This document shows positions 1,382 to 17,251 of a stretch of DNA of 64,000 nucleotides, piece by piece. The position numbers and the translations under genes were made by a program. The first letter of the stretch is position 1, and every line of letters starts with the position of its first letter. The stretch spans positions 2,112,001 through 2,176,000 of the forward strand of contig CAWIIB010000009.1 of the NCBI GenBank assembly GCA_963836075.1. The letters run 5' to 3'. The notes under the pieces are model-generated. The model worked only from the letters and a program-made list of their open reading frames with translations, was not told where the DNA came from and searched no databases. This DNA comes from an uncultured Acidobacteriota bacterium (GTDB taxonomy: Bacteria > Acidobacteriota > JAQAZP01).

Positions 1382-1580
1382 GGTCGTGGCACCGTTGGGT
1401 ATCTGTAGTGACCGGTTGTTCGAAAAACGAGAGTACTATCCAATTTTACTCCGAAGCGCCTCTGCCGGGCAACGACGGCGCCGGGGCTCCGGCTCGATGC
1501 GGTCTTGAACCGGCGCGTCCAAACACGATATGGTGACCGGTGACCGGCGGTCATCCGCCACACCCGATACGGTACACCCC

Positions 1581-3233
1581 ATGCATTCCGCTTCGACCGA
1601 TGCGAACAGTAGATCCCGCGGCGCGCTGCTGCCGGTCTCCAGCCTCGCCCTGCTGGTGGCGGCGGTCTATCTGGCCTTTCCGGCCCGGCTCTATTTTGGT
1701 GAGGGGTTCAAGTGGGCCCTCAGCGAGCCGTCCTGCACCGGGGGACTGTTCCGCTTCTTCCACCCGCACCACCTGCTTTACAACCCCCTGGGCTATCTGG
1801 TGCACCAGGTGCTGGTCCTGGTGCGTCCCGGGTTGTCGCCGATGATCTCCTTCCGTCTGCTGGATACCGTCGCCGGCCTCGGCGGCGTGGTTGTTTTTCA
1901 CTGCCTGGTCCGCCGTCTCTGGCGGCGTGAGTGGCTGGCCGGCTTCACTGCTGCCGGGTTCGCCTTCTCCTGGGGCTACTGGTCGCACTGCGTCAATGTG
2001 GAAGTCTATCCGGTGAGCGTCTTGTTCCTCGTCCTCGGATTTTCCCTGGCGGCGCGAGCGGTGCGGGAACCCGCAGCCGGGTCCCGGGTGTGGGCCCTGC
2101 TGGGGCTTGTGGCCGGTGGGGCTGTGCTGTTCCACCAGAGCAATGTGCTCTTCCTCGCCGTTCCCCTGGCCGCGGTGTTCTGGTACCCGGCGGGTCGGCG
2201 GGCCGGGTTCCGGCTCTTCTGGCGGTTCTTCCTCCCGGCCTATGCGGCGGTAACCATCCTGCCCTACCTGGCGGTGATGCTGCACCTCGGGTTTCGGGCG
2301 CCGGGTGAAGCCCTGACCTGGCTTTTTCTTTACGGGCACCAGGCGGACACCTATCTGGGCACCGATGCGTCGGTGGTGGTTCACGCGCTGGTTTCCTTCG
2401 GCCGGATGCTCCTGCTCCCCTCCTCCTACACCGCGGCATCCGCCGACCCGCTGGTGCCGCCGCCGCTTCTCCTGACGCTCAAGTGGTGCGCGGCCCTGTT
2501 GCTCGGTCTCCTGATGCTGGCTGCCGCACTGCGCCCGCGGCAGCTCTTCCGCAGCTGCGGCCCCAGTCTGGTGCTGGCCGCGGCGCTTGCTGTTCCCTAC
2601 GCACTCTTTTTTACCTTCTGGGATCCCGGCGGCTATTTCTTCTGGCTTCCCCTTGGTATTCCGTTCTGGCTGGTGGCCGGAGGCGCCGCGGCCTCGCTGT
2701 CCCCGGGAACGCCGGCTCGTGCCGCTGTTCCGGTTCTGGGTCTGGCCGTGCTGGCCCTGTTCACCCTCAACCTGGCCGGCGGCGTGCTGCCGCAGAGCCG
2801 GCTCTCCCGGGTGGCCGACCACCGGCTGATGCAGCTGGTCACCCGGCACCTGGGCCAAGGGGACCTGCTGCTGCTCAACACGCCGCGGATGGATGTGATA
2901 TCAAACTTCGGCGGGCCGATGTTTTACGGGTACGCCCGTGCCTTTTCCCGGTTCCAGGTGCAGTGCCTCCTTCCCGGTCTGGACGCCCCGGGGCCGGAAG
3001 CGGCGCTGCGGGAGATGGTGGCCGCCGGCAGCCAAACCAGCACGGGCCTCTGGTATCTTGACGAGGTCCTTAAAGGACAGAGCACTCATGGCGGCCGGGG
3101 AGGAAGGATCCGGGAAGCATTTCGGCGCTGGGGCGTGCGGGCCGTGCTGGCCGAAGCTCATGGCGCGGGAGACGCCTACAACGGTTCCCTCCTCTATCGC
3201 CTGGTCCCTGACCCGCCGGCCGAGTCCCCCTGA
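1581..3233 (+). CDS. Polytopic membrane protein, GT-C fold / DUF2723-like putative glycosyltransferase
   Basis: About 10-12 hydrophobic segments; HPHHLLY and YWSHCVNVEVYP motifs (the EVY resembles DUF2723/TMEM260-type proteins). ATG at 1581 chosen over 1530. Confidence 0.55.
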   Translation: MHSASTDANSRSRGALLPVSSLALLVAAVYLAFPARLYFGEGFKWALSEPSCTGGLFRFFHPHHLLYNPLGYLVHQVLVLVRPGLSPMISFRLLDTVAGLGGVVVFHCLVRRLWRREWLAGFTAAGFAFSWGYWSHCVNVEVYPVSVLFLVLGFSLAARAVREPAAGSRVWALLGLVAGGAVLFHQSNVLFLAVPLAAVFWYPAGRRAGFRLFWRFFLPAYAAVTILPYLAVMLHLGFRAPGEALTWLFLYGHQADTYLGTDASVVVHALVSFGRMLLLPSSYTAASADPLVPPPLLLTLKWCAALLLGLLMLAAALRPRQLFRSCGPSLVLAAALAVPYALFFTFWDPGGYFFWLPLGIPFWLVAGGAAASLSPGTPARAAVPVLGLAVLALFTLNLAGGVLPQSRLSRVADHRLMQLVTRHLGQGDLLLLNTPRMDVISNFGGPMFYGYARAFSRFQVQCLLPGLDAPGPEAALREMVAAGSQTSTGLWYLDEVLKGQSTHGGRGGRIREAFRRWGVRAVLAEAHGAGDAYNGSLLYRLVPDPPAESP

Positions 3234-3344: not shown

Positions 3345-3941
3345 ATGCGATTCATCAGCAAGAACACGATGTCCCCGGCACCTTTCCGGATACTTCTGAT
3401 CGCGCTCCTCGGGGCGATGGTGCTCGCCTGTGGCGCGACCCCTTCCGGCGCCGACGACGCGGCCCTGAAGGCCGAGACTCCCGCGGTGGGGACGGCCGTG
3501 GGCAACCTGGCTCCCGATTTCACGGCCAGCAATTTCCATGGCGGTACGGTCAACCTTGCCGACTACCGGGGCAAGGTCGTGCTGCTCGATTTCTGGGCCT
3601 CGTGGTGCGGACCCTGCATGCGGGAGATGCCGACCCTCGTCGAGATCAAGAACCGCTACCCCGCGGACAAGTTCGTGATCATTGGGGTGAGCCTCGACAT
3701 GGACAAATCCAAGGCTCGGATGAAGCAGGTGATCGCCGACAACAAACTCGATTACCCGATTCCTTACGACGGCAAGGGCTGGCGCAATGCGGTCTCGTCG
3801 CTCTACGGCGTGAGATCGATCCCGGCCACCTTCATCCTCGACGCGGACGGGGTCATCGTGGACCGCAACAAGCGGGGCCGGGAACTGATCCAGCTGCTGG
3901 ACAAACTGGTGCCCGTAAAAAAGGTGCCCGCAAAACAATAA
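3345..3941 (+). CDS. TlpA/ResA-family thiol-disulfide oxidoreductase, probable lipoprotein
   Basis: APDF...GKVVLLDFWASWCGPCMREMP (CxxC), GVSLD and YGVRSIPATFILD motifs; N-terminal hydrophobic stretch ending VLAC. Confidence 0.9.
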   Translation: MRFISKNTMSPAPFRILLIALLGAMVLACGATPSGADDAALKAETPAVGTAVGNLAPDFTASNFHGGTVNLADYRGKVVLLDFWASWCGPCMREMPTLVEIKNRYPADKFVIIGVSLDMDKSKARMKQVIADNKLDYPIPYDGKGWRNAVSSLYGVRSIPATFILDADGVIVDRNKRGRELIQLLDKLVPVKKVPAKQ

Positions 3942-4085: not shown

Positions 4086-4352
4086 CTAGAGGTTCTTGAT
4101 CTCCTTGCCCGGTTTGAAGCGGACCTTTTTTCCGGGAGCGATGGGGACGATCTCGCCGGTGCGGGGATTTCTGCCGATCCCTGTTTTCCTCGACTTGACT
4201 TCGAACACACCAAAGCCGCGCAGTTCGATCCTTTCACCGTCTTTCAACGCGTTTTTCATCGTGCTGAAAATTGTCTCCACGGCGATTTCCGCCCGGCCCT
4301 TGGAAATGTCGGCGACCTTGGCTACTTCATTGATGATATCGATTTTGATCAT
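4086..4352 (-). CDS. hup: HU/IHF family DNA-binding protein
   Basis: 88 aa, MIKIDIINEVAK...IELRGFGVFEVKSRKTGIGRNPRTGEIVPIAPGKKVRFKPGK. Start at ATG 4352 after an AG-rich RBS. Confidence 0.9.
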   Translation of the reverse strand: MIKIDIINEVAKVADISKGRAEIAVETIFSTMKNALKDGERIELRGFGVFEVKSRKTGIGRNPRTGEIVPIAPGKKVRFKPGKEIKNL

Positions 4353-4475
4353 TCGGCCTTTCTCCTTTTTCTCCTCCACCGTACCGAAGCGTGCCCGAAC
4401 CGCCCGTTCCTTGTCGTGGGGTTGTGGGTAGCGGGTCAACTTTTGCCCGGGATCGTTCTGGTCCGATTAACCTGC

Positions 4476-6234: not shown

Positions 6235-8390
6235 AAACCTATCTCGTGTTTCCGCCCCACTGGACGGCCACCGAACCGTACCTCAGCTGCCCCGCCCTCA
6301 CCGCGTTCCTGCGGGCGCACGGCCAGGAGGTCCGCCAGCAGGACGCCAACGTGGAGTTCTTCCGCTATCTGCTCTCCGAACCCTATCTGCGCCGGGCTCG
6401 CGACGAAGTGCAACATCGGTTCAGGCTTCTGGAGGCCAGGGACGAGCTGACTATCGAAGAGCAGGACCGCTACCAGGTCTACACCCAGGCGCTCCTCCCG
6501 GCGGACACCGCAGTGGAGAACATCGAGGGGAGTCTGGAGGACTATCGTGACCCGGAGAAATTTTTCAACCTCAACGATTACTACCGCGCAGGGCGGATCC
6601 ATTTCGCCGCTCTGAAGCTGGCTTCCGCGCTGTACCATCCCAGTTCGGTCACCTTCTCCGAATACAACAGCCGCTACCGCTACGCCAGCACCCGCGAGAT
6701 CCTCCAGGCGGTGGAGGACCGCGGAGAGAACATGTTCATCGAGTTCTTCGAGGAGCAGGTGGTGCCGAAGATCGAGGCCTACGGCCCGGGAATTCTCGGT
6801 CTGTCCATCAGTTCCCCGCACCAGATCATTCCGGCATTCACCCTGGCCTCCCTGGCCCGCAAGCGCATGCCTGGCCTGCACATCGTGGTGGGGGGCGGCT
6901 ACTACACCAGGATGCTCATCGATCCCCAGCGAATGGCGCCGTTGTTCGACCTGCTGGACAGCGTCGTGGTCTACGAGGGTGAAACCGCGTTGCTCCGACT
7001 GGCCGAGGAACTGGACGGCGGGGGCCGGCTGGACAGGGTGCCCAACCTGGTCTGGCGCGATGGTGGAGACGTGCGGGTCAACCAGCCGTTCCATCACGAA
7101 CGGGTCGACGAGCTGCCCACCCCCACCTTCGACGGGTTTCCGCTGGAGAAGTATCTGAACCACCAGGTGGTCATCCCCTATCTCACCTCCCGGGGCTGTT
7201 ACTGGGGCAAGTGCGCGTTCTGCACCAGCTTCGAGACATATAAGGGCGGTTACCGCCAGCGAAACATCGACCTGGTGCTGGAGGACCTGAAGACGCTCTC
7301 CACGGAGTGCGGATCGAACAGCTTTTTCTTTGTGGACCAGGCCACCTCCCCCGCATCCCTCCGGCGAATCTCCCAGGGGCTGATCGATTCCGGCGCCGAG
7401 TACCACTGGCAGACCGAGGCCCGCTTCGAACGCAAACTGGACCTTCCGCTACTCCGGCTGATGCACCGCTCCGGCTGCCGCAAGCTGCTCTTCGGCCTCG
7501 AGTCGGGGCACCAGCGGGTGCTTGACCTGATGGAGAAGGGGACCCGTCTGGAGGACACACGGCGTATTCTCGAGGACTGCCAGAAAGCCCATATCGGTAT
7601 CCACGTCTTTCTCATCTGCGGTTTCCCCACCGAGACCGTGGAGGAGGCGGACGCCAGCGTCGAGTTCATCCTCGGGGTGGAGGGTCTGACCTCATCTCCC
7701 GGTTTCACCTACCACGTGCACAACTTCGGTCTGGAGACCGATTCAAAGGTGGGAATGAACCCGGAGCGCTACGGGGTGACGCTGCAGCCGATGGAGGAGG
7801 ACCTGGACCAGTTCCTGCACTACATCGGCTACCAGGTGGAGCAAGGCATGCCCCCGGAAGCCCTGGAACACAAGGTGGCCGAGATGCGCGGCAGGATTCT
7901 CCAACGGGTGGCCTTCAAGGACTATCCGGTCCACGGGCCGCACAACCTGCTCTACCTGGCGCATTACGGGTGGGCGTTCCCCGAGCCATTGGAGAACGTG
8001 GCCCAGTTCAAGGACCTCCCGTTCCAGAAGCTCCTCGGTTTTGTTCCGGTGCTGGCCGACGAGGTGACGGTGAAGGAGTTCAAGTTCTACGTGCCCGAAG
8101 AGGAGGGGGTGCCGTCACCCCTCCCCGGCGGTGGTGAGGGGAGTGCCCCGGCGGAGCGGAAGCTGATCCATGTGGGCGGCCACTTCTACTGCTATATCGG
8201 CCGCACCGAGCGGAGCTGGCTGATCAGCCCCCGGGGCAAGACCCTTCTCGACCTCACCGACGGCACACGGACGGTGGAGCAGGTCTGTACCCTGTTCGAG
8301 CAGCAGCAGCCGTCCAAAACCGCATTCATCCAGGCCGCCGGGGACATGCGTGTCTTCTTCCAGCGCGGCGCCCTGACCGTCGCCGGTTAA
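6231..8390 (+). CDS. B12-binding radical SAM protein with C-terminal RRE/PqqD-like domain (putative RiPP C-methyltransferase)
   Basis: IVVGGG...VVYEGE B12 domain; TSRGCYWGKCAFC (Cx4Cx2C); FGLESG and ICGFPTET barrel motifs; the C-terminal ...GKTLLDLTDGTRTVEQVC... resembles PqqD. Confidence 0.85.
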   Translation: MKTYLVFPPHWTATEPYLSCPALTAFLRAHGQEVRQQDANVEFFRYLLSEPYLRRARDEVQHRFRLLEARDELTIEEQDRYQVYTQALLPADTAVENIEGSLEDYRDPEKFFNLNDYYRAGRIHFAALKLASALYHPSSVTFSEYNSRYRYASTREILQAVEDRGENMFIEFFEEQVVPKIEAYGPGILGLSISSPHQIIPAFTLASLARKRMPGLHIVVGGGYYTRMLIDPQRMAPLFDLLDSVVVYEGETALLRLAEELDGGGRLDRVPNLVWRDGGDVRVNQPFHHERVDELPTPTFDGFPLEKYLNHQVVIPYLTSRGCYWGKCAFCTSFETYKGGYRQRNIDLVLEDLKTLSTECGSNSFFFVDQATSPASLRRISQGLIDSGAEYHWQTEARFERKLDLPLLRLMHRSGCRKLLFGLESGHQRVLDLMEKGTRLEDTRRILEDCQKAHIGIHVFLICGFPTETVEEADASVEFILGVEGLTSSPGFTYHVHNFGLETDSKVGMNPERYGVTLQPMEEDLDQFLHYIGYQVEQGMPPEALEHKVAEMRGRILQRVAFKDYPVHGPHNLLYLAHYGWAFPEPLENVAQFKDLPFQKLLGFVPVLADEVTVKEFKFYVPEEEGVPSPLPGGGEGSAPAERKLIHVGGHFYCYIGRTERSWLISPRGKTLLDLTDGTRTVEQVCTLFEQQQPSKTAFIQAAGDMRVFFQRGALTVAG

Positions 8391-8438
8391 ACCAGAAGAG
8401 GACCCTCCTCTGCTCCAGTCCCGCCCGTGTGTATGTAC

Positions 8439-8473
8439 AAAAAAAGACCTCTTCACTGGGGGAGGAAGAGGTC
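8439..8473 (-). terminator. Intrinsic terminator ending the precursor transcript(s)
   Basis: 9-bp stem GACCTCTTC/GAAGAGGTC with a T7 tract following on the minus strand (A7 at 8439-8445); lies between convergent genes. Confidence 0.75.
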
Positions 8474-8665
8474 ATCTCTTAGCTAGCCAGATTTTTTAGC
8501 GATTGAAAAGAGGCGTTATCGTTTTAACGTGAATTTGAACAGCTTTCAACAGGAACAGGAACTCGCAGCTTTTCGCCTCTTGAGGGTATGGAAATTCAAA
8601 CCGCTCTTCGGGGATTGCGAAGTCTTGGCGAAATTTCAAATACCCGAATTTTACTCAAGCCATCC

Positions 8666-8932
8666 TTAGGAGGCGAGAGTTACCCAGTTGCCGCACAGGC
8701 CGGCGTACCAGTAAGACTGGGACGTTCCGCCAGGGCCGAAGCCGACGCCAGCCTGACCGGGGCTCACACTGGAGCTGGCACCAAAACCAGCACCAAGGTG
8801 ACCGGTGAAGGTGTCATAGGCGCTCGCCATGTGGTGAGAGCCAGCCGGAGGACTGGCAGTCTTACCACATGCCAGGGCCGAAGTCTCAAAGCTCTTCTCA
8901 GTGAAAATAGTGGGCTTGGAATACTTCTTCAA
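8666..8932 (-). CDS. RiPP precursor peptide A3 (88 aa)
   Basis: MKKYSKPTIFTEKSFETSALACGKT...YDTFTGH...AGVGFGPGGTSQSYWYAGLCGNWVTLAS; TTG start after strong RBS GGAGGAGGTG; paralog of the two upstream peptides. Confidence 0.9.
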   Translation of the reverse strand: MKKYSKPTIFTEKSFETSALACGKTASPPAGSHHMASAYDTFTGHLGAGFGASSSVSPGQAGVGFGPGGTSQSYWYAGLCGNWVTLAS

Positions 8933-9132
8933 TCTGTTTCACCTCCTCCCGTTTTGGAATCTCCCTCTCGGGTTAAACCCAAGGGTCTTTAATGCCGAAA
9001 CGAACAAAACCCCGCAGTGATCGATTCATGTGTCTATCAGTTAACCACTGCGTTCCGGCAAACTTTAAACTGCGTTACTTCCCTTGTTCGCCGTGGGGCC
9101 GGCCGCAACCGGATCACCGCACTGGCTGACCG

Positions 9133-9167
9133 AAAAACAACCCGAACATCGTCACATGCGGGGCTGC
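9133..9167 (-). terminator. Possible weak terminator or stabilising hairpin after precursor A2
   Basis: Imperfect stem (GCAGCCCCGCAT...ATGTTCGGGTTGT) followed by TTTT on the minus strand. Confidence 0.35.
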
Positions 9168-9182
9168 CCGATCATCGGTTGA

Positions 9183-9443
9183 TCAGGACGACATCTGAAC
9201 CCAGTTGCTGCACAGCCCGGCATAGTTGTAACTGCCGCTGGTGCCGCCGGGGCCGAAGCCCACGCCCGCGGAACCGCTGGCTGACTCTGTCCGGCCTGGT
9301 CCGAAGTGACCGGTAAAGGTGTCATACGCACTTGCGAAATGGCGCGAACCTGGATCGGCGGCGCTGGTCTTGCCGCAGGCCAGCGCTGATGTCTCAAAGG
9401 TCTGTTCCGTCTGGATAACCGGCTTGCCGTAAGGAAGTCTCAT
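9183..9443 (-). CDS. RiPP precursor peptide A2 (86 aa)
   Basis: MRLPYGKPVIQTEQTFETSALACGKT...YDTFTGH...AGVGFGPGGTSGSYNYAGLCSNWVQMSS; ATG 9443 after GGAGGT. The track ORF 9183..9713 is over-extended. Confidence 0.9.
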   Translation of the reverse strand: MRLPYGKPVIQTEQTFETSALACGKTSAADPGSRHFASAYDTFTGHFGPGRTESASGSAGVGFGPGGTSGSYNYAGLCSNWVQMSS

Positions 9444-9513
9444 AATTACCTCCAGAGAACCGACCAGCCGGTTCAGGGTGTGCCCCCGATGTGGCCGGTT
9501 CACTTCGGAACAA

Positions 9514-9780
9514 TCAGGAACTGTAGGTGATCCAGTTGCCGCACATACCGCTGTAAACGTAACTGCCGCTGGTGCCGCCGGGGCCAAAGCCGATGCCGGC
9601 GCTGCCGCTGGCCGACTCGCTACCGCCGAAACCACCACCGAGGTGACCGGTGAAGGTGTCATAGGGAGCACCCATGTGCCAGGATCCCGGAGGGGGATCA
9701 GTGGTCTTGCCACAGGCCAGTGCGGAAGTTTCGAAACTCTTCTCGGTCGCGATCCTCGGCTTCTTGTAATCTCTCTTCAT
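9514..9780 (-). CDS. RiPP precursor peptide A1 (88 aa)
   Basis: MKRDYKKPRIATEKSFETSALACGKT...YDTFTGH...AGIGFGPGGTSGSYVYSGMCGNWITYSS; ATG 9780 after AGGAGGT. Confidence 0.9.
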   Translation of the reverse strand: MKRDYKKPRIATEKSFETSALACGKTTDPPPGSWHMGAPYDTFTGHLGGGFGGSESASGSAGIGFGPGGTSGSYVYSGMCGNWITYSS

Positions 9781-9850
9781 TACACAACCTCCTTTGATAT
9801 AAAGAGTTTTGGTATTGTTTGCCATTACACCTGGAAGGCAATTGGCGCTC

Positions 9851-9879
9851 TTTATATCATAGGGTCCCTGATGTGTCAA
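9851..9879 (-). promoter_or_regulatory. Near-consensus sigma70 promoter for the precursor genes
   Basis: Minus strand TTGACA-N17-TATAAA with an extended -10 TG, about 70 nt upstream of ATG 9780. Confidence 0.75.
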
Positions 9880-10029
9880 GTTCCTTCGCAGGACTTAGAT
9901 ACGGCTAACCAGCTTGCTCTCGGCGGCCTGAAAATCGGTGGACCGCCGGGATGGTCCGCGTCAATACTGGGAACCTGATTTCAACCCGTTGAGAAACCCC
10001 TGTTGCCGCAGCAACAACGTCAGTTAATC

Positions 10030-10046
10030 TGCACGATTTGTGCCAA
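10030..10046 (-). promoter_or_regulatory. Putative sigma54 (-24/-12) promoter upstream of the precursor genes
   Basis: Minus strand TTGGCAC-AAATC-GTGCA, exact GG-N10-GC spacing, in an AT-rich intergenic region. Confidence 0.55.
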
Positions 10047-10346
10047 TTGCCGGGGTATTGTCCGGTGTCTTATCGTCGTGCTCGTAATTCATTATGGTGG
10101 AAGGAAATAGTTCCCTGATCCAGGGCTGGTGGGCCGCCGGCATTGTGTCGGATCGCCCGTACGCTGCTCTGATCAAGGAATCGAATTGCCTACAGTCGGA
10201 AAACTATTACTCTTGGCAATCCCTTGCCTTTTTGGTTGGTTTGTTTATTTTTTGGCCGTCTATCAGCGATGCCGCGCCGGCTCCGGTGCGGTGAGGGGGA
10301 CTGAAGTCAAAAATGCGTGCCTCGAAGAAAGGTGCGGGGTGGCGAT

Positions 10347-10895
10347 TCAGTTCCGGAGCAGCGCGCCGAGAACGTAGACCGGACCGCAGAACAGGTAACG
10401 GATCACCGGCCGGGCCATGCGGTTCGGTCCCGCGGGGAGGCGGGCCGCCAGAGCCAGCAGGGGGCAGGCCAGGCGGCAGCTGAGGGCGGAGGCGCTGGCC
10501 ATGATCCGGCTGCGGACGCCGCGTCCGAGGGCTACGTCCCGCCCCTGGCGGCTGGTGGAGGCGACTCTGCCGAGAAGCGTATCCGCAGAGTGTGGCGGGT
10601 CGTAGTGGGGCAGGGTATCGCCGCTGGTCAGCATCAGCCGTTGGCCGTCCGCTGCGTTCTGCCAGCCGAGAAACCGGTGGCCGATGAAGCGACCGTCCCG
10701 GGTGGCGAAGAAGAGGATGTCTCCCGCCCGGGCCTGTTCTGCCTCCAGCGGTTCGATCCGGATCATCTCCCCGTGGCGCACAACCGGCATCATGCTTCCG
10801 CCAAAGGCGCGGAAGGTGAACGATCCATGACCGTCCAGCGTCTCCCGGATCATTCCGGCAGTGACGGTCCTGTGCTGCGGGCCGGGTCTGCTCAT
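10347..10895 (-). CDS. S24/S26 family (signal peptidase I-like) peptidase, putative leader peptidase
   Basis: GGSMMP (catalytic Ser), GDILFF, IGHR (His) and SGD motifs; last gene of the maturase operon, directly upstream of the precursors. Confidence 0.75.
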   Translation of the reverse strand: MSRPGPQHRTVTAGMIRETLDGHGSFTFRAFGGSMMPVVRHGEMIRIEPLEAEQARAGDILFFATRDGRFIGHRFLGWQNAADGQRLMLTSGDTLPHYDPPHSADTLLGRVASTSRQGRDVALGRGVRSRIMASASALSCRLACPLLALAARLPAGPNRMARPVIRYLFCGPVYVLGALLRN

Positions 10896-10911: not shown

Positions 10912-12027
10912 TCAGGTTTCGATGTCGTCGATATCAGAGGCCGGACGCTTCTCCTGGACCAACCGGCGCATCTTGGAGGTCCGGCAGGCGAAGGAGGACG
11001 GCCCGAAAGCGTCGCCGTCTTCCAGCAGGGCCACTCCCGGGCAACGGAAGCAGATCGGCAGCAGGGAACACTCGCTGCACTTCTCCACGTCGGCCATGGT
11101 GGTCTGCCGTATTTTTTTCAGCACCGGCGAGTTCTCCCAGATCTCACTGAACGGAGTTTCACGCAGGTTTCCGGCGCTCATCTGAAACTGGATGCAGGGG
11201 AACACGTTTCCGTAGGGGTCGATGCTCAGGAAGTTGGTGCCCGCCTTGCACATGTAGGTCTCCCTGGTCATCTGGGCGCCTTCGCTGTATTCCCGGGTCC
11301 CGAAGGTGAGCAGTCCCTGGTTGAACTTCTCGTCGCTGAGGATGCGGTGCAGGTCCTCGTCGCTGATCCGGTTGCCGCAGGGGCGTGATGAGCCGTCGAT
11401 TCCCGGGGCGATCAAGGGATCGATGGTGTATTTCACGTCCAGGCGGTCTCCGAGGGTCTTGATCAGGTCGAACTCCCCCACGTTGTCTTTCATCAGCGTG
11501 CACTTGAGGTTGACCTTCAGCCCCCGCGCCTTGAGCATCATGATCGCGGCGATGGTCTTCTTGAACGACCCGGGGAGCTGGGTGATCCGGTCATGGGTTT
11601 CCGCCGTGGCGCCATAGACCGAAATACCCATCTCCCACGGGGCCACCGACTTGATCCGGTCGGCCAGTTGCTCGTCGATCATCGTGGCGTTGGTCAGCAG
11701 GTTGATGGCGAAATGCAGGCTCCTGGCATGCTCGAGGATCTCCCAGATATCGCGGCGGAGAAAGATCTCACCGCCGGTGATCGAGAGGTGCAGCGTGCCC
11801 GCCTGGGCCAGCTGGTCGAGAATGGTGCGGATTTCGTCGGTGGTCAGTTCCTGCTTCACCTTCTCCTTCGAGGGGTGGTCGAGGTAGCAGTGCAGGCACT
11901 TTTCGTTACAGCGGTGGGTCAACTCCAGGATGACGCTGTACGGGATCAGCTTCTGGTGTGAGACGCTGCTGATCTTGCTCAGCACCGAGGGCTGGAACAG
12001 CTGCTCGGGGGGCGTGTTGTCGGACAT
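10912..12027 (-). CDS. Radical SAM/SPASM domain peptide maturase
   Basis: LELTHRCNEKCLHCY (CxxxCxxC), ITGGE, TNAT; SPASM region CKAG...IDPYGNVFPC...CSECSLLPICFRC...C. ATG 12027 with RBS GGAGG. Confidence 0.92.
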   Translation of the reverse strand: MSDNTPPEQLFQPSVLSKISSVSHQKLIPYSVILELTHRCNEKCLHCYLDHPSKEKVKQELTTDEIRTILDQLAQAGTLHLSITGGEIFLRRDIWEILEHARSLHFAINLLTNATMIDEQLADRIKSVAPWEMGISVYGATAETHDRITQLPGSFKKTIAAIMMLKARGLKVNLKCTLMKDNVGEFDLIKTLGDRLDVKYTIDPLIAPGIDGSSRPCGNRISDEDLHRILSDEKFNQGLLTFGTREYSEGAQMTRETYMCKAGTNFLSIDPYGNVFPCIQFQMSAGNLRETPFSEIWENSPVLKKIRQTTMADVEKCSECSLLPICFRCPGVALLEDGDAFGPSSFACRTSKMRRLVQEKRPASDIDDIET

Positions 12028-12177
12028 CTGGCGGGCCTCCCTGGGGATACGTGCGGCACGCGGATGCGTGCGGAAGGCCCTGCCGGCATCACGGCCGTAG
12101 ACGCCGCCACGGCCGGATTCTTGCCGGCCCGGGCGGGGCCTGTCCACGATTCCGGCGGGGCGTTCCGGCTCGGGGGA

Positions 12178-12453
12178 TCAGGAAAGGGTGACCAGGCTCT
12201 TTTCCTTCTGCATCAGTTCTTCGATGAATTCCACCACGTCTTTTTCCGCGGTTTCCCGGTCCACTTCGAACTCCGAGACCACCTGGTCGACAATCTCGCT
12301 CACTGTCTTCTCGCCGTCGCACAGCTCCCAGATCCTGGTGCCCACCGCGTCCAGCGAATGGACCGAACTGTCTTCAGCGGAGAGGAGGACCGCCTCGTCT
12401 CCAATAATACGCCAGGCGACGTTTTCGTCTCGGGTCACTTTCTTATCCAGCAT
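12178..12453 (-). CDS. Stand-alone PqqD-family RiPP recognition element (RRE)
   Basis: 91 aa, ...LDAVGTRIWELCDGEKTVSEIVDQVVSEFEVDRETAEKDVVEFIEEL, a classic PqqD signature. Confidence 0.92.
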   Translation of the reverse strand: MLDKKVTRDENVAWRIIGDEAVLLSAEDSSVHSLDAVGTRIWELCDGEKTVSEIVDQVVSEFEVDRETAEKDVVEFIEELMQKEKSLVTLS

Positions 12454-13255
12454 TTTCGATGCACCTCCATACAGACTCGTCGGGCTTGAAATGCAATTCC
12501 GCCGACGGGATCTGCGTCATGAAATCGGTGAAAACGGAAAGGAGTTCGTTGGTCAACTCGAGACCGCGGCCGAAAAACAGCACGTTTTGCAGAATCTGCG
12601 TCATTTTAACGCCCATGGGGATCTGGTCGATCCGGTTTTCCCTCGCCTTGCGCAGGAAGAAGAGGTGAGAAACCGGTGCCGATTCCCGGGCCGTCCCTTT
12701 CTGGAAGTCGCCCCAGAACGGGTTGCCGTGGACGACATATTCTCCGTTTTCCTTGAGCACGGCGGTCAGTTCGTCGCTCAGCAGTCTGTTTTCGGGCGAC
12801 AGGCCGCTGATCGTGCTTTTCCCCGACCCCGAGGAGCCGGTGAAGATGTAGCCCCTCCCCTTGTGAACAACCGAACTGGCGTGGAGCATGAATCCGCCCC
12901 GCTTGAGCATCAGCCAGGTGTAGAAAACCCGATAGAACGCGTCAAAGGAATAGATCGACTCGTGCACCTCCAGGGCCCCCTGGTTTCCGGCAATGCTGAA
13001 CACTCCCGTGAAATCGCTCCGGTTCATGTTCAGCCGCTCGTCCTCCAGGGTGAGAACGGGCTGCTCGCCGAGGCGGCTCTCCCTCGCCGACTCACCCGTC
13101 TCGGCGTCGAACGTGGTGACCCGGTAGGTGTACAGCGGCTGGTCGTCGGTGATGAAACTCTCGTAGCGGTCCCGCAACACCTCGGACAGCGTTGGGGAAT
13201 CCACCTCGAACCGGGTGGCGATGTCGGCGATGGTGATGGTGATCGACGTGTCCAT
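12443..13255 (-). CDS. HPr-kinase-like P-loop protein (ScmC / lasso-kinase-like), putative peptide kinase
   Basis: MLHASSV...YIFTGSSGSGKST (Walker A)...LLSDE...HGNPFWG. Real start is ATG 13255 within the over-extended 944-aa track ORF; the stop overlaps the PqqD start. Confidence 0.8.
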   Translation of the reverse strand: MDTSITITIADIATRFEVDSPTLSEVLRDRYESFITDDQPLYTYRVTTFDAETGESARESRLGEQPVLTLEDERLNMNRSDFTGVFSIAGNQGALEVHESIYSFDAFYRVFYTWLMLKRGGFMLHASSVVHKGRGYIFTGSSGSGKSTISGLSPENRLLSDELTAVLKENGEYVVHGNPFWGDFQKGTARESAPVSHLFFLRKARENRIDQIPMGVKMTQILQNVLFFGRGLELTNELLSVFTDFMTQIPSAELHFKPDESVWRCIENAG

Positions 13256-13357
13256 GATCTGGTTCCTGCACCCGGGAAATACGGCCCGCGGCGCCGCTGT
13301 GCGGGTCGGGCCGCCGCCTTTTCCGATTGTGTCGCCAACCCCTGCGAAAGGGCAATA

Positions 13358-13386
13358 GATATAGCAAAGGGCCCTTGTCTTGTCAA
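13358..13386 (-). promoter_or_regulatory. Sigma70 promoter for the kinase-PqqD-rSAM-peptidase operon
   Basis: Minus strand TTGACA-N17-TATATC with an extended -10 TG. Confidence 0.6.
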
Positions 13387-13419
13387 TAAAGCGATGACAG
13401 TTCCACCGGAGCCGGCCCG

Positions 13420-13449
13420 TTGACCCCTGGCGGCAAAAGTTGCTACCAT
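13420..13449 (+). promoter_or_regulatory. Divergent sigma70-like promoter for the methyltransferase gene
   Basis: TTGACC-N18-TACCAT with TG immediately upstream of the -10. Confidence 0.4.
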
Positions 13450-13528
13450 GCTCCGCTTTCCGGCGCGAAGCCCTCCCCGGTGGACGTTGGGCGCCGGTCG
13501 GCTGAACCTGATCGCTCTGGTGTTCACA

Positions 13529-14659
13529 GTGGACCTGTCTCTCCTCAAACTGATTCGTTGTCCGGCGGACACCGGCGGCCGTGCCTGCCATTCCCCGCTG
13601 GGCATCGACCGTCCGGCCGCCGAACCGGTCTTCTTCCCCGGAGGGGATCAGGACCTGGCGCAAGGGGTGTTGCGCTGCGACGGCTGCGGTGCCCGCTACC
13701 CGGTGATCTGCGGGGTGCCGGTGCTGCTGCGGGGTGTGGAGGCCTGGATCAGCGGGAACTACTGGTTCCTCCTCGGTTTTGCCGGGGAGATGGGCGCTCC
13801 GGTGACAAGCACCGCGGACTTTCTCCGGGAGACAGCTTCCCGGGACGGCGGGATGCCGCCCCGCCAGCTCTATGACCGTCGATGGTCCACCCGGGTGGCC
13901 AAGTTCGTCAGTAGCTACCTGATCAGCCACCACCTGGGTCTGGAGCGTCTGGAGTTGCTGGGACCGGCCCAGCGCCGGCTGGCCATGGAGATGGCCGTTG
14001 AGGGTGGTCCCCACGAGGTGCTCCAGGGCATGCTGGACGACCTGGAGACGCCCGGCGACACCACCGGGCCGGCCCTGGATGTGGGGTGCAGCGTGGGCGG
14101 CATGACGGCCCGATTGGCCGTTGGGGACCGGCTGGCGGTGGGGGCCGATATCAGTTTCGAGAGCCTGGTCTGGGCCCGGGCGCTGCTCAGGGGGCGGCCC
14201 GGCCCGCGTAACCTGGCGCCGGTGTTCACCGAGGGGGACAACCGGGTGGAGGTGCCGCTGGCTCCCCCGCAAGACAGCCGCTGCGAGTTCGTGCTGGCCG
14301 GCGGCGAGGCGCTCCCCTTCACCGACGGCTCTTTCGGGGTGGTCGCCAGCTGCAACCTGGTCGATGTGATCGACAAGCCGTCGGAACTGCTGGACGAGAA
14401 GAGCCGGTTGCTGGGGCCCGGCGGCGTGCTGCTCGTCTCCTCGCCCTTCCTGCATACCGCTGCGGGAGTTGGCCGCTGTCTCGCCCCCGAGGGCCGGCAG
14501 CCGACGGCTGTGTTGCGGACCATGCTCGAGGAACGGGGTTTCGAAGTGGCGGCCGAGCAGGAGGATGTGCCGTGGGTGCTCTATCACTACCGCCGCCGGC
14601 TCGATTTCTATCAGACGTTTTGTCTGGCCGCCCGCCGATGCGCGGCGGCTGAAGAGTGA
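13529..14659 (+). CDS. Class I SAM-dependent methyltransferase with N-terminal Trm112-like Zn module
   Basis: LIRCPAD...LRCDGCGARYPVICGVPVLL (Trm112-like); ALDVGCSVG, GADIS, LPFTDGSFGVV and LLGPGGVLLV motifs. GTG start inferred. Confidence 0.75.
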   Translation: MDLSLLKLIRCPADTGGRACHSPLGIDRPAAEPVFFPGGDQDLAQGVLRCDGCGARYPVICGVPVLLRGVEAWISGNYWFLLGFAGEMGAPVTSTADFLRETASRDGGMPPRQLYDRRWSTRVAKFVSSYLISHHLGLERLELLGPAQRRLAMEMAVEGGPHEVLQGMLDDLETPGDTTGPALDVGCSVGGMTARLAVGDRLAVGADISFESLVWARALLRGRPGPRNLAPVFTEGDNRVEVPLAPPQDSRCEFVLAGGEALPFTDGSFGVVASCNLVDVIDKPSELLDEKSRLLGPGGVLLVSSPFLHTAAGVGRCLAPEGRQPTAVLRTMLEERGFEVAAEQEDVPWVLYHYRRRLDFYQTFCLAARRCAAAEE

Positions 14660-14668
14660 GGCAGGTCT

Positions 14669-15808
14669 ATGGTCCATGTCTATCGGGCGGCAGTCTACCT
14701 GGTCATGATCGTCGCGGCGCTGCTGTTCTATCTGCTGCTGCGCCGGCTGTTCGGCAAGCGCACCCGGGTCTTCCCGCTGGTGGCGGCGCTGCTGGCGGTC
14801 ACAGGTTTGCTCTGGTGTACGCACTTTGCGCTCTCCAAACCGGCGTTGCTGCAGAAATACGCGCCGGTCCTGAAAATCAGGAAGCAGGGGGCGAAGATGA
14901 ACATGGTCTATATGGAGTCGGAGGTCCGGATCTGCAACCCCGACGGATCGGGGGACATCCTGTTCCTGCCCCAGGATTTCATCACCACCCGGGACATCAC
15001 CTGGTCGCCCGACGGCACCAGGATCATCTGCAGCCGTGTGGGGGACAGCCACGAGGGGATGAACCTCTGGCTCTACGATGCCAATGGTGAAAACCCGGTC
15101 CCGCTCACCTCGGGTCCGGGGATTGCCCGCCGGCCCAGCTGGTCGCCCGACAGCACCAGGATCGTCTTCGACTTCCGCCCCGGCTTGCGCCAGCTGGCCA
15201 CCGATATCTGCGTGATCAATGCCGACGGCAGCGGCCGGCAACTGCTGCTGGCCGGCAGCCGGACCCACGCCTATCATCCGGTCTGGTCACCGGACGGCAC
15301 GTCCATCTACTGCTGTGTGAAGGACGGGCGCCGCGATGACATCTGGGTCATGGATGCCGACGGCGGAAACCTGCGCCAGCTCACCTTCACCGCCGACCAG
15401 TCGGAGACCGAACTGGCGGTATCCCCCGACGGCAGCACCATCGTGTTTTCATTAAACCGCCGGGAGATGTACCTGATGGACGCCGACGGAAGCCATGTCC
15501 GCCCCTTGACCGCCGGGGACGGCAAGACCTGCCGGGGCCGGGACCCCAGCTGGAGCCCGGACGGCCAGCGGATCCTCTACGCCGGATTCGGGGCCAAGAA
15601 TTCCAGACGGTTCATCAAGGAGATCGGCAGGGACGGCAGCGGGCTGCGGCAGATCCCGGTGCAGGACGGCAAACTGCTCACCCCGGTGATGACGCCTGAC
15701 GGGTCGCGCCTGACCTACCTGCGGTTCGTCAAGACGGTGGTGCGCAAGGTCACACCCAGAAGGAACCCGGTGGCCGGGCCGGGGCTGCCGGCGGGAGAAG
15801 GGCGCTGA
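14669..15808 (+). CDS. Membrane-anchored TolB-like (PD40) beta-propeller protein
   Basis: Two N-terminal TM segments; repeated WSPDG motifs with interspersed MDADG blocks. Confidence 0.85.
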   Translation: MVHVYRAAVYLVMIVAALLFYLLLRRLFGKRTRVFPLVAALLAVTGLLWCTHFALSKPALLQKYAPVLKIRKQGAKMNMVYMESEVRICNPDGSGDILFLPQDFITTRDITWSPDGTRIICSRVGDSHEGMNLWLYDANGENPVPLTSGPGIARRPSWSPDSTRIVFDFRPGLRQLATDICVINADGSGRQLLLAGSRTHAYHPVWSPDGTSIYCCVKDGRRDDIWVMDADGGNLRQLTFTADQSETELAVSPDGSTIVFSLNRREMYLMDADGSHVRPLTAGDGKTCRGRDPSWSPDGQRILYAGFGAKNSRRFIKEIGRDGSGLRQIPVQDGKLLTPVMTPDGSRLTYLRFVKTVVRKVTPRRNPVAGPGLPAGEGR

Positions 15809-15814
15809 CCGGGG

Positions 15815-17203
15815 TCAGGACGACCTGGCCTTGAGCTTGAGACGCTTGATCATTTCGCTGAGGGTGGTGGGTTTGACCTGCAGCAGCTGGGCCGCCGACT
15901 TCTGCACACCGTTGGACAGGGAGAGGGCGCGGAGGATCAGAGCCTTCTCGAATTCCTCCACGGTCTTCTTCAGCGAGAGCCCGCCGTCGGGGATGATAAT
16001 CTCCTCCGCCGAGGGAATGGCCGGATTGCGGATGTGACCGGGGATCAGGTCGAGGTCGATTTCATCCGTCTTGCACAGAACCACTGCCCGCTCCACCGTG
16101 TTCTCCAGCTCGCGCACGTTTCCCGGCCAGTGGTAGCCTTCCAGCACACCCAGCGCCTCCCGGGTGAAGCCGGCCACACTCTTGCTGTTCTCCTCATTGT
16201 AAGTGCGGAGAAAGTGCATTGCCAGCAGCGGGATGTCCGAGGCGCGCTGGCGCAGCGGGGGCAGGGAAATGGTGATCACGTTGAGCCGGTAGTAAAGGTC
16301 TTCGCGGAATTCCTTTTTCTGCACCGCCTCTTCGAGATTGGAGTTGGTGGCGGCGATGATCCTGGTGTCGACGCGGATCGAGTCCACTCCGCCCAGGGCC
16401 ATGAACTCCCGTTCCTGGATCACCCGCAGGATCTTGGCCTGGGTTTCCGAACTCAGGTTTCCCACCTCGTCGAAGAAGATGGTCCCACGGTCCGCCAGCT
16501 CGAAGAGGCCCTTTTTGGTGTTGATCGCGCCGGTGAACGCCCCCTTCACGTGTCCGAAGAGATTGCTCTCCAGCAGGTCCGCCGGCATGCTGCCGCTGTT
16601 CACCACGATGAACGGCTGTCCGGAGCGGGGGCTGTTCATATGGATCGCCTTGGCGATCAACTCCTTGCCCGTTCCGCTCTCCCCCTGGATCAGCATCGTC
16701 GAGCGGCTCGGTGCCGCCTGGGAGATCAGGTCGAAGATCTCCTTCATCTCCGTGCTCTGGCCGATGATGTTGGAAAAACCGTATCTGTCGGAGAGGGCCC
16801 GCTTGAGGTTGCGGTTCTCCTGGGTCAGCCGCCGGTGCTCCACCCCCTTGCCGATGGTCAGCAGCACCTCCTCGTTCTTGAACGGTTTGGCGATGTAATC
16901 GAAGGCACCGTTTTTCATTGCTTCGATGGCGCTCTCCACCGAGGCGTAGGCGGTGATCATGATCACCACCTGGTGCGGGTCGTCCTGTCTGATGGACTGC
17001 AGCGCTTCCAGCCCGCTCATCCCAGGGAGCATGATGTCGCAGAGGATGACGTCGAAGTCGGTTTCGCCCAGCTGGCGCAGCCCGTCTTCAGCCGTGCCGG
17101 CGCATTCCACCTCGTAGCCGCGGCGCCGGAGCAGGCGGACCAGCACATCCTGCATCACCTCTTCGTCGTCGATGACGAGGACCCTGGCCCGCTCCTTATC
17201 CAT
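15815..17203 (-). CDS. Sigma54-dependent response regulator (NtrC family; REC-AAA+-HTH)
   Basis: VIDDE...DIMLP receiver; GESGTGKE, LESNLFGHVKGAFTGA, FREDLYYRLNV and WPGNVRELEN motifs; Fis-like HTH. Confidence 0.95.
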   Translation of the reverse strand: MDKERARVLVIDDEEVMQDVLVRLLRRRGYEVECAGTAEDGLRQLGETDFDVILCDIMLPGMSGLEALQSIRQDDPHQVVIMITAYASVESAIEAMKNGAFDYIAKPFKNEEVLLTIGKGVEHRRLTQENRNLKRALSDRYGFSNIIGQSTEMKEIFDLISQAAPSRSTMLIQGESGTGKELIAKAIHMNSPRSGQPFIVVNSGSMPADLLESNLFGHVKGAFTGAINTKKGLFELADRGTIFFDEVGNLSSETQAKILRVIQEREFMALGGVDSIRVDTRIIAATNSNLEEAVQKKEFREDLYYRLNVITISLPPLRQRASDIPLLAMHFLRTYNEENSKSVAGFTREALGVLEGYHWPGNVRELENTVERAVVLCKTDEIDLDLIPGHIRNPAIPSAEEIIIPDGGLSLKKTVEEFEKALILRALSLSNGVQKSAAQLLQVKPTTLSEMIKRLKLKARSS

Positions 17204-17251
17204 CCTGTCGCTCTCGATTGTGGCGCCGGAGCCTCAGGAGCCGGTGCCGTT

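Follow-up and report, generated by a model that had tools for sequence, protein, structure and literature searches.

Three paralogous peptide genes close a minus-strand gene array

The 64,000-nucleotide stretch of an uncultured Acidobacteriota genome analysed here (contig CAWIIB010000009.1, positions 2,112,001 to 2,176,000; hereafter the window) carries, within positions 8666–9780 of its minus strand, three paralogous open reading frames (ORFs), pepA, pepB and pepC, each of which is preceded by a Shine–Dalgarno sequence (Table 1). Read 5′ to 3′ along this strand, the gene order is HprK-like protein, PqqD, radical S-adenosylmethionine (rSAM)/SPASM enzyme, S26-like peptidase, pepA, pepB, pepC and a terminator. 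We propose that the three peptides are, quite probably, the precursors of a RiPP (ribosomally made, post-translationally modified peptide) pathway of the rSAM/SPASM and PqqD type that is encoded directly upstream on the same strand. The product is most likely an undescribed, unusually large and conserved modified peptide from one genus of sediment Acidobacteriota.

PepB and PepC are 66–70% identical to PepA over the whole length, and 51 of the 89 columns of the protein alignment are invariant. Specifically, the hydrophilic leaders of 21–22 residues end in A-L-A, are followed by C-G-K-T, and conform on this side to the invariant pattern Y-x-K-P-x-I-x-T-E-x-x-F-E-T-S-A-L-A-C-G-K-T, while the cores, which comprise 66, 64 and 67 aa in PepA, PepB and PepC, share the motifs G-S-x-H, Y-D-T-F-T-G-H, G-F-G-P-G-G-T-S and C-x-N-W. 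Each peptide contains exactly two Cys residues, the first right after A-L-A and the second at the ninth position from the end. The ORFs and the protein alignment thus confirm the original prediction, made from the letters of this stretch, of a triplicated family with conserved leader and core motifs, two Cys residues and cores of 64–67 aa. At the DNA level, the similarity ceases at the ORF borders and many of the differences are synonymous; the resemblance among the three copies is far above chance. The TTG start codon of pepC sits 7 nt downstream of GGAGGAGGTG. Two of the three genes had also been expected to be mis-started in the ORF track, and the longest-ORF list indeed extends two of them through upstream in-frame starts, to 9183–9713 (176 aa) and 9514–9879 (121 aa).

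Downstream of pepC, the minus strand of 8425–8500, which contains the terminator-like hairpin, folds at −21.2 kcal/mol (z −2.9), and 2 of 200 shuffled sequences fold equally well; a simple terminator scanner passed over this hairpin because its loop exceeds 8 nt. Owing to an A-run on its opposite side, the hairpin could also serve the convergent plus-strand operon. Across 8300–10500, a sigma-70 scan gave no promoter-like site, and a terminator scan gave three terminator-like sites, a number not above the shuffled level.

Table 1. Features of the peptide locus and its convergent operon in the window
Feature	Position	Strand	Description
pepA	9514–9780	−	88-aa putative precursor peptide; ATG start; Shine–Dalgarno AAAGGAGG
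pepA layout			leader, residues 1–22; core, residues 23–88; Cys23, Cys80; last residue Ser
pepB	9183–9443	−	86-aa paralogue; ATG start; Shine–Dalgarno GGAGG
pepC	8666–8932	−	88-aa paralogue; TTG start; Shine–Dalgarno GGAGGAGG
Intrinsic-terminator-like hairpin + U7	8439–8473	−	closes the transcription unit of the peptides
Soluble S24/S26-fold Ser/His peptidase (SipW/SEC11-like), 182 aa	10347–10895	−	candidate leader peptidase
Radical-SAM/SPASM putative peptide maturase	10912–12147	−	Pfam Radical_SAM 6.4e-22, SPASM 3.9e-12
PqqD-family RiPP recognition element (RRE), 91 aa	12178–12453	−	Pfam PF05402, E 1.1e-21, 77.3 bits vs cut-off 23.4
HprK/PEPCK-fold P-loop protein, 270 aa	12443–13255	−	NCBIfam and fold match; may phosphorylate the C-terminal Ser
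B12-binding radical-SAM protein, 719 aa	6231–8390	+	converges on the peptide genes; tailoring role possible, membership uncertain
Second B12-binding radical-SAM protein, 506 aa	4714–6234	+	operon with the 719-aa gene; TIGR04190-like, 1.5e-53, under cut-off; membership uncertain

The peptide genes are conserved and under purifying selection

Nei–Gojobori (NG86) ratios of nonsynonymous to synonymous substitution rates (dN/dS) among the three copies are 0.30 (pepB vs pepA), 0.20 and 0.19, with synonymous divergences (dS) of 1.06, 1.55 and 1.96. Taken separately, the core has a dN/dS of 0.20–0.35 and the leader one of 0.14 in two pairs, dS being saturated in the third pair. The genes, core included, are under purifying selection. 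In line with this, the mean column entropy over 122 family sequences is 1.03 bits in the core vs 1.33–1.52 bits in the leader, so that conservation of the core equals or exceeds that of the leader. The original prediction had included both purifying selection on the core and a core as conserved as the leader, and both stand; its view that variation is confined to a few named spots does not, as the most variable core positions across the 122 members are 75, 57, 72, 49, 77 and 87. Residues C23, H35 and H46 are invariant and C80 nearly so over 122–131 sequences, C23 being invariant in all 131, and 105 of 114 long cores have exactly two Cys residues.

A word-indexed search of 5.8 billion proteins returned 204 related clusters at E<=0.01. 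Among the 120 listed, lengths are 84–118 aa (mostly 86–92), none has a Pfam domain, and the named ones are called 'hypothetical protein'; the expectation that automated annotation would probably miss such genes is therefore not borne out. Eight database clusters lie closest to PepB (76–89% identity) and 11 closest to PepC (78–99%). These PepB-like and PepC-like lineages of other assemblies are separated by a clear margin from the next paralogue, and the triplication is therefore older than the divergence of those assemblies. Neither Pfam nor NCBIfam has a match for PepA, PepB, PepC or three short-core relatives described below, and the ESM Atlas matched the peptides with unnamed clusters only.

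Additionally, contigs from RNA libraries (metatranscriptome assemblies of three studies) fall on 8571–9938, several of them with 0–1 mismatches; they mark presence in an RNA library, and strand, ends and level are not readable from them. In library X15, contigs cover 8599–8930 with no mismatch (pepC) and 8921–9427 with one mismatch (pepB), and pepA is partially covered by RNA-library contigs. The maturase genes (3.5 kb) have no contig cover in X15, X17 and X19 and a few pieces in X20, which is not readable as lower expression of the enzymes. Because the DNA similarity of the three copies, which are 66–70% identical in protein, ends at the ORF borders, and in view of the dN/dS ratios, the 204 related clusters and the RNA-library contigs, pepA, pepB and pepC are real, conserved genes.

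A four-gene cassette directly upstream of the peptides

Pfam was scanned with 19 ORFs of positions 1–22,170. The translation of the rSAM/SPASM gene, whose true start may be the ATG at 12027, contains the motifs C-x12-G-x4-C and C-x2-C-x5-C-x2-C. No NCBIfam model matches the enzyme at its cut-off, and its closest solved sequences are PqqE (6c8v, 4.7e-15) and SkfB (6efn, 7.2e-13).

In the HprK-like protein, His125 and the P-loop (Walker A) G-x-S-x-x-G-K-x-T are invariant in eight homologues. NCBIfam matches it to ScmC (4.1e-12), HprK_rel_B (1.2e-8) and HprK_rel_A (5.5e-6), each under its cut-off, and Pfam Hpr_kinase does not match it. Its AlphaFold2 model, with a predicted local distance difference test score (pLDDT) of 89.3 and a predicted template modelling score (pTM) of 0.87, is matched by Foldseek to phosphoenolpyruvate carboxykinase (PEPCK; 1oen, 4e-8) and to the HPr kinases 1knx, 3tqf and 1kkl (~2e-4). 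The likeness of this predicted protein to HprK is confined to the P-loop region and the modelled fold.

The S26-like peptidase matches NCBIfam TIGR02228 (signal peptidase I) with E 2.5e-9 (37.2 bits vs a cut-off of 51.85) and Pfam Peptidase_S24 with E 0.001, and the region of human SEC11C (7p2q) that holds the catalytic Ser, His and Asp aligns with its GSM, HR and GD motifs, though only at E 0.16. A hydropathy scan found no convincing membrane helix in this peptidase or its homologues: the window protein has one marginal window of 1.63, and three homologues reach maxima of 0.72, 0.87 and 1.51 (reference mark 1.6). The peptide leaders have 15-residue hydropathy maxima of 0.3–0.6.

The leader family is tied to rSAM/SPASM–PqqD cassettes across the phylum

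The weakest matches to the family profile align with the leader only and translate to peptides of 38–60 aa that share the leader Y-x-x-P ... E-x-x-A-[LV]-x-C-x-K, followed by a short core that has a second Cys and ends in Ser. Between the short and long forms there are sequences of intermediate length, and the existence of short-core relatives, which had been raised in the original prediction, is thereby established. In the leader common to long and short peptides, Y5, P8, E17, A20 and C23 are invariant and K25 is nearly so; in the core, both forms share only the Cys that directly follows the leader, a Lys two positions further, the second Cys 7–9 residues from the end and the terminal Ser. 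A leader-centred profile (A7) matches 76 of 401 sampled genomes and 51 of 227 genera of the phylum (75 of 400 genomes without the unpublished genome G151), the sampled genomes being related and partly chosen by the analyst; outside the window genus, each matched genome has one to four matches.

Loci were compared in two sets, with gene calls made by a simple ORF and third-codon-position G+C (GC3) heuristic plus tblastn. The first set, with ~9 kb fetched on each side, consists of 13 of 15 leader-only matches; the other two, L040 and L050, were rejected as spurious, since one lies in a 485-aa frame, the other has six stops and neither shows the leader motif. In this set, an rSAM/SPASM homologue (32–42% identity) adjoins the peptide at 13 of 13 loci, together with PqqD at 11, an HprK-like gene at 9 and an S26-like gene at 8. 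Eight loci were scanned with Pfam, which confirmed PqqD and rSAM and revealed a PF14907 nucleotidyltransferase in two, a B12-rSAM protein in two and an ABC transporter in one. The second set comprises 40 loci chosen non-randomly to spread over genera, with ~7 kb fetched on each side, and an rSAM gene lies within the fetched stretch at 28 of them. Over both sets, 41 of 53 leader-family loci have a homologous rSAM/SPASM gene within ~7 kb. Five of the 12 exception genomes were re-examined, and all five have an rSAM orthologue (45–53% identity), which in four lies on the same contig, 12.5–16 kb off. The leader family is tied to the rSAM/SPASM–PqqD cassette across the phylum. Together with the PqqD, rSAM/SPASM and further cassette genes upstream of pepA, this linkage of the leader relatives to homologous cassettes agrees with the original reading of the peptides as RiPP precursors.

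A giant Peptidase_C25 gene (gingipain-like, with fn3 domains; 1,440–1,500 aa) lies directly downstream of the short peptide at four of the eight Pfam-scanned loci (L061, L063, L071 and L072), and tblastn matches to Peptidase_C25 occur at 25 of the 40 second-set loci. At L082, L084, L092, L095 and L118, the short-core peptides end in G-P-I-T-S, and the accompanying genes encode FG-GAP and zf-HC2 anti-sigma proteins, ORFs of ~275 and ~400 aa without a Pfam match, and TPR/spermine-synthase-like proteins, with the rSAM gene 12.5–16 kb distant.

The long-core family is copy-expanded within one genus

When 1.84 billion representatives (50% identity) were searched exhaustively with a HMMER profile, only 22 clusters matched at E<=0.001, 11 of them at E<=1e-10. 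Among the 401 sampled genomes of the phylum, full-length long-core matches occur only in the three genomes of the window genus (13, 10 and 11 matches); the named records with the family are two metagenome-assembled genomes, one labelled Acidobacteriota, and a 2.9-kb contig labelled PVC group. The window genome itself has 16 matches at 10 places, with PepA as the top match to the family profile (E 1.1e-48). Eleven are full-length copies and four are decayed, by a frameshift, by a stop in the leader, by 5′ truncation and by reduction to a 3′ fragment beside an integrase gene, respectively. The order of the window locus recurs in L001, and in G007 the locus is split over two contigs. The long-core family is a copy-expanded, genus-restricted offshoot of the short-core class, whose cores span ~16–35 aa.

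At L033 (G000:C9:597501-611000), a 39-residue 3′ fragment of a peptide gene (4329–4436) lies 1.7 kb from an integrase (rve) gene (1717–2664), which suggests that one copy decayed after insertion of a mobile element. On the 2.9-kb contig labelled PVC group (L011, 1–2237; the label may be unreliable), a pepC-like gene is followed by a convergent gene for a 547-aa radical-SAM protein, which has no B12 domain and occupies the place of the window's B12-rSAM gene. At L035 (G000:C9:3121000-3140500), positions 7259–10134, two peptide copies, one of them 5′-truncated, are followed on the same strand by a gene for a 759-aa B12-binding radical-SAM protein. This protein (G000:C9:3.128 Mb) was considered as a counterpart of the window's enzyme and rejected, as the two share only 25% identity; L035 is a second, independent pairing of the peptide family with a B12-rSAM protein. 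Orphan long-core copies of the window genome also lie beside genes for a 787-aa Peptidase_C11 protein (L029, 7000–9363) and a 2,078-aa S8 subtilase with an H-type lectin domain (L034, 10488–16724).

Two further sets of cassette relatives were found. A second cassette of the window genome (G000:C1:1290052-1293636) combines rSAM/SPASM (25% identity) and HprK-like (30%) proteins with a PF14907 nucleotidyltransferase (2.2e-48), and no long-core peptide lies near it. Each of the three genomes of the genus also has a paralogue of the window rSAM/SPASM enzyme (39–43% identity), at G000:C1:90218-91324, G026:C198:10192-11187 and G007:C1:7810-8817.

The core is predicted to adopt a small beta-rich fold

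AlphaFold2, run with 131 sequences, gave a peptide model of mean pLDDT 74 and pTM 0.52. In this model, residues 33–83 form four short strands and two short helices, the beta-rich core has pLDDT 77–83 across residues 31–60, and the leader is less confident. Foldseek gave no match to the model at E<=0.001, and VIA found none of 48,161 chains at Z>=2, no analogue being found in the PDB. A small defined fold of the core is thus moderately supported by the predicted structure. In the core, a fixed framework that includes C23, H35, H46 and C80 is combined with a handful of highly variable positions. Such a pattern agrees with a repertoire of related products and, along with the number of paralogues, speaks against a cofactor precursor. 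The original prediction had spoken of a defined fold or a cofactor-like scaffold; the former finds moderate support in the model, although without a PDB analogue, and the latter is disfavoured by the 11 diverged paralogues.

Proposed maturation of the peptides

PqqD proteins are the leader-binding elements of RiPP pathways, and the PqqD protein of the window would likely bind the leader and present the core to the rSAM/SPASM enzyme. A model of the PqqD–PepA complex scores 0.37 vs 0.01 for the best of three controls, which lends this step weak support. Of 157 solved complexes, 116 attain the 0.37 mark, as do 2 of 215 mismatched pairs; only 18 of the 157, but both mismatches, attain it while staying at <=0.60. 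These calibration counts hold only roughly, because the alignments were the analyst's own, and the model may remember solved RRE–leader complexes. Across model runs, at least 86% of the contacts agree, and the partner pLDDT is 44–45.

The rSAM/SPASM enzyme would then cross-link the core. The likeliest chemistry is thioether formation from the conserved residues C23 and C80, which we advance tentatively; alternatively, the near-invariant K25 or W83, or aromatic residues, would be linked. The two Cys residues are the likeliest targets of a SPASM enzyme because they are among the few core residues common to the long and short forms. SkfB, among the nearest solved relatives of the enzyme, forms thioethers.

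By analogy with the HPr-kinase homologues that act on lasso-peptide precursors, the HprK-fold protein could phosphorylate the conserved C-terminal Ser, a step to which we give somewhat less than an even chance. The C-terminal residue of 120 long-core homologues is Ser in 110, Thr in 6 and Cys in 4, and that of the short peptides is Ser in 13 of 13 in a first set and, in a further set of 30, Ser in 29 and Thr in one. According to the accessible part of PMC8498205, HPr-kinase homologues phosphorylate the C-terminal Ser of lasso precursors, and a nucleotidyltransferase can then glycosylate the phosphate. The related cassettes L065, L069 and L117 contain such a candidate, NTP_transf_5 (PF14907).

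The soluble S26-like Ser/His peptidase might equally well be, or not be, the enzyme that would remove the leader after A20-L21-A22, an A-x-A site, leaving an N-terminal Cys. Of 114 long-core members, 112 have Ala at position −3 from the first Cys, and 108 have Ala, Ser or Gly at position −1. The leader end therefore follows the A-x-A rule that type I signal peptidases obey, and the gene next to the peptides encodes a protein predicted to have that fold; since the enzyme is predicted to be soluble and the leader is hydrophilic, we propose a signal-peptidase-fold enzyme as a cytoplasmic leader peptidase. It is doubtful whether the convergent pair of B12-radical-SAM proteins takes part, in which case it would add modifications such as C-methylation. 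The single cassette would presumably also serve the dispersed paralogues.

Evidence against the pathway and alternative explanations

Several findings weigh against this pathway. In the window genome, the four-gene cassette stands at only one of the 10 family places; one other copy (contig C8) adjoins a diverged HprK-like gene, and the remaining places are orphans. Linkage to PqqD and rSAM genes, which the original prediction treated as decisive, is thus lacking for most long-core copies and is found for the leader family, at 41 of 53 loci. Even for the latter, 12 of the 40 second-set loci have no rSAM gene within ~7 kb, and the loci without a nearby rSAM gene have a different conserved set, namely an FG-GAP protein, a zf-HC2 anti-sigma factor and two ORFs without a Pfam match. 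HprK-like genes were detected at 25 and S26-like genes at 15 of the 53 loci. The terminal Ser is kept where no HprK-like gene is detected, and may therefore serve another purpose; at L061, a 639-aa ORF in the place of the HprK-like gene has no likeness to the HprK-like protein. Two Cys residues are few for a sacti- or ranthipeptide, residue −1 of the wider family is not always small (Q, H, T, R and V occur too), and the PqqD–PepA complex model leaves the fold of the peptide uncertain. None of the rSAM, HprK-like and S26-like proteins has an NCBIfam match that reaches the curated cut-off, DNA may be present in the RNA libraries, and each chemical step is deduced from genes, conservation and linkage.

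The missing cassette at nine of ten places, the conservation of C23, H35, H46 and C80 and the moderately confident beta-rich core at residues 31–60 would also agree with small, independently folding proteins, in which these four residues would serve for metal binding or a disulfide, the leader would be no more than a tag for export or processing, and most copies would do without the cassette. The gene for a TlpA/ResA-like thiol-disulfide oxidoreductase at 3345–3941 points the same way. We regard this explanation as improbable: the short-core relatives lack the His residues yet keep the leader, both Cys residues and the cassette; the leader has no hydrophobic stretch, with the low maxima given above, and hence no Sec signal; and the leader family is linked to rSAM/PqqD genes at 41 of 53 loci, while no fold match was found. 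Far less probable still is a role of the core as the peptide scaffold from which a redox cofactor is derived, in the manner of PqqA for PQQ or MftA for mycofactocin. Such a role would suit a core that is more conserved than its leader, a PqqD protein, and an rSAM/SPASM enzyme that resembles the PqqE structure 6c8v and matches the PqqE and MftC models along its length (1.3e-31 and 1.1e-38). These scores, however, are far under the cut-offs (109.8 vs 381 bits for PqqE and 133.3 vs 265 for MftC), the genome holds 11 full-length, diverged paralogues and four decayed copies whose lineages stay separate across assemblies, and the ORFs scanned beside the copies include no dehydrogenase or cofactor-dependent partner; the kinase-like protein and the leader peptidase suggest instead a released peptide product.

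Within the RiPP pathway that we favour, the HprK-like protein may act elsewhere than on the C-terminal Ser, by phosphorylating an internal Ser or Thr of the Ser/Thr/Gly-rich core or by serving as an ATP-dependent scaffold, the terminal Ser then being a recognition element for export or for the large proteases. The retention of this Ser at loci with no detectable HprK-like gene speaks for such a role, as do the giant Peptidase_C25 gene that adjoins the peptide at four of eight loci (tblastn matches at 25 of 40) and the Peptidase_C11 and S8 genes that flank two orphan copies in the window genome. We nevertheless judge it unlikely, because the only characterised HprK homologues of RiPP clusters act on a C-terminal Ser and need little else of the substrate, and because NTP_transf_5, which glycosylates that phosphate in pseudomycoidin, occurs in three related cassettes (both points on the substrate and the sugar transfer following the accessible part of PMC8498205). 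The C25, C11 and S8 proteases beside the copies may be either processors or targets of the peptides. A more far-reaching and rather improbable extension of our proposal is that the products are miniature folded, enzyme-cross-linked and C-terminally phosphorylated proteins, with 11 or more paralogues per genome, a fixed scaffold and variable surface positions (34, 49, 57, 72, 75, 77 and 87), which would act, for example, as specific binders or inhibitors of the adjacent C25, C11 and S8 proteases and would be matured in trans by one rSAM/PqqD/kinase/peptidase locus.

Comparison with known systems

In kind, the window system is an rSAM/SPASM–PqqD RiPP system; it falls outside every curated NCBIfam system, the matches to ScmC, ScmE, ScmF, PqqE, MftC, StsB and PapB all being under their cut-offs, and, with no cyclase or B2 protease among the ORFs scanned, it is not a lasso peptide. 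It resembles the sactipeptides and ranthipeptides, RiPPs of rSAM/SPASM enzymes and PqqD (RRE) domains that include PapA/PapB and SCIFF, in its short, co-oriented precursor genes behind PqqD and a SPASM enzyme, its conserved leader and its core Cys residues. It differs from them in a core of 64–70 aa that is more conserved than the leader, in two Cys residues that lie 56–57 residues apart, in 11 or more paralogues per genome, mostly away from the enzyme, and in a maturase under all NCBIfam cut-offs. With SynChlorMet (SCM: ScmC TIGR04249, ScmE TIGR04250, ScmF TIGR04251), a cassette that has been defined bioinformatically only, it shares an HprK-related protein with rSAM/SPASM, ScmC being the best NCBIfam match of the HprK-like protein. 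The scores are nevertheless low (46 vs 125 bits for ScmC, 115.5 vs 400 for ScmE and 86.7 vs 400 for ScmF), and the window has one rSAM/SPASM enzyme rather than two, plus an S26-like peptidase. A full-text literature search found no paper naming SynChlorMet.

In prochlorosin and Nif11-type systems, many scattered precursor genes are served by one modification locus, and the leaders are conserved whereas the cores are hypervariable; the window family is alike in its dispersed precursors and differs in that its core is the more conserved part. The S26-like peptidase is similar to the SipW/SEC11 (S26B) type I signal peptidases in its putative Ser and His motifs, which align only at E 0.16, and in a substrate with Ala at −3 and a small −1 residue in 95% of the long-core family. 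It departs from them in having no anchor in its homologues and a marginal one in the window protein, a hydrophilic leader as substrate and a score under the family cut-off. We know of no signal-peptidase-fold enzyme in RiPP leader removal, and none was found in the literature searched.

The lasso-peptide HPr-kinase homologues of paeninodin and pseudomycoidin (PMC8498205, accessible in part) offer a parallel in an HprK-fold protein beside a PqqD-type protein and in substrates ending in Ser, and PF14907 occurs in related cassettes and in the second cassette of the window genome. In place of the lasso cyclase and B2 protease the window has a radical-SAM enzyme, and Pfam found neither an Asn-synthetase-like cyclase nor a transglutaminase-like B2 protease among the 19 ORFs of 1–22,170. 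CrpA of Methanococcus voltae is, according to the accessible part of PMC13692751, a protein-sized, cysteine-rich archaeal substrate that is given ranthionine cross-links by the SPASM enzyme CrpC; the window system would be alike in a SPASM radical-SAM enzyme acting on a long, protein-like substrate and differs in its two Cys residues, bacterial host, separate PqqD, kinase-like protein and peptidase. The accessible text of PMC10288494, PMC12710340 and PMC7470986 makes no mention of HPr, kinase, Acidobacteria or signal peptidase, and one supplement of PMC10288494, which is possibly incomplete, likewise. The full-text literature search, which does not extend to subscription papers and most supplements, found no description of the system; it may be mentioned in genome-mining data sets.

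New in this system are the long conserved core, the expansion in copy number, and the HprK-fold protein and soluble S26-fold peptidase that it has recruited. The cores of RiPPs are generally short and differ from one another; with 64–70 aa, a conservation above that of its leader and 11 or more copies in a genome, the core described here has a place between peptide natural products and small proteins that are cross-linked after translation. The leader family occurs in about a fifth of the sampled Acidobacteriota genomes and is tied to an uncurated rSAM/SPASM–PqqD cassette, and this cassette recruits an HprK-fold protein, so far known only from lasso-peptide tailoring. New radical-SAM chemistry could come from the system, as could a portable module with which a C-terminal Ser is tagged.

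Convergent and flanking genes

The 719-aa B12-rSAM protein matches Pfam Radical_SAM (9.5e-13) and B12-binding (2.4e-5) and NCBIfam TIGR03975, a RiPP C-methyltransferase model (7.4e-37, 127 bits vs a cut-off of 282). A C-terminal stretch of it is RRE-like by hhalign with E 0.0022 but a probability of 13%, and has no Pfam match. Locus L009 keeps the pair of 506-aa and 719-aa proteins in the same arrangement.

Shortly upstream of this operon, the plus strand encodes the TlpA/ResA-like thiol-disulfide oxidoreductase (3345–3941) and a TMEM260-like putative glycosyltransferase (1530–3233). A sigma-54-dependent response regulator and a PDZ-containing histidine kinase are encoded on the minus strand at 15815–19675, 2.5 kb upstream of the cassette. 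A 944-aa minus-strand ORF (12443–15277) was rejected as a high-G+C artefact that is real only in its last 270 codons, the HprK-like gene up to 13255; opposite its false part lie plus-strand genes for a methyltransferase (13448–14659) and a PD40 beta-propeller protein (14669–15808), and the 944-aa frame would mislead a longest-ORF annotation.

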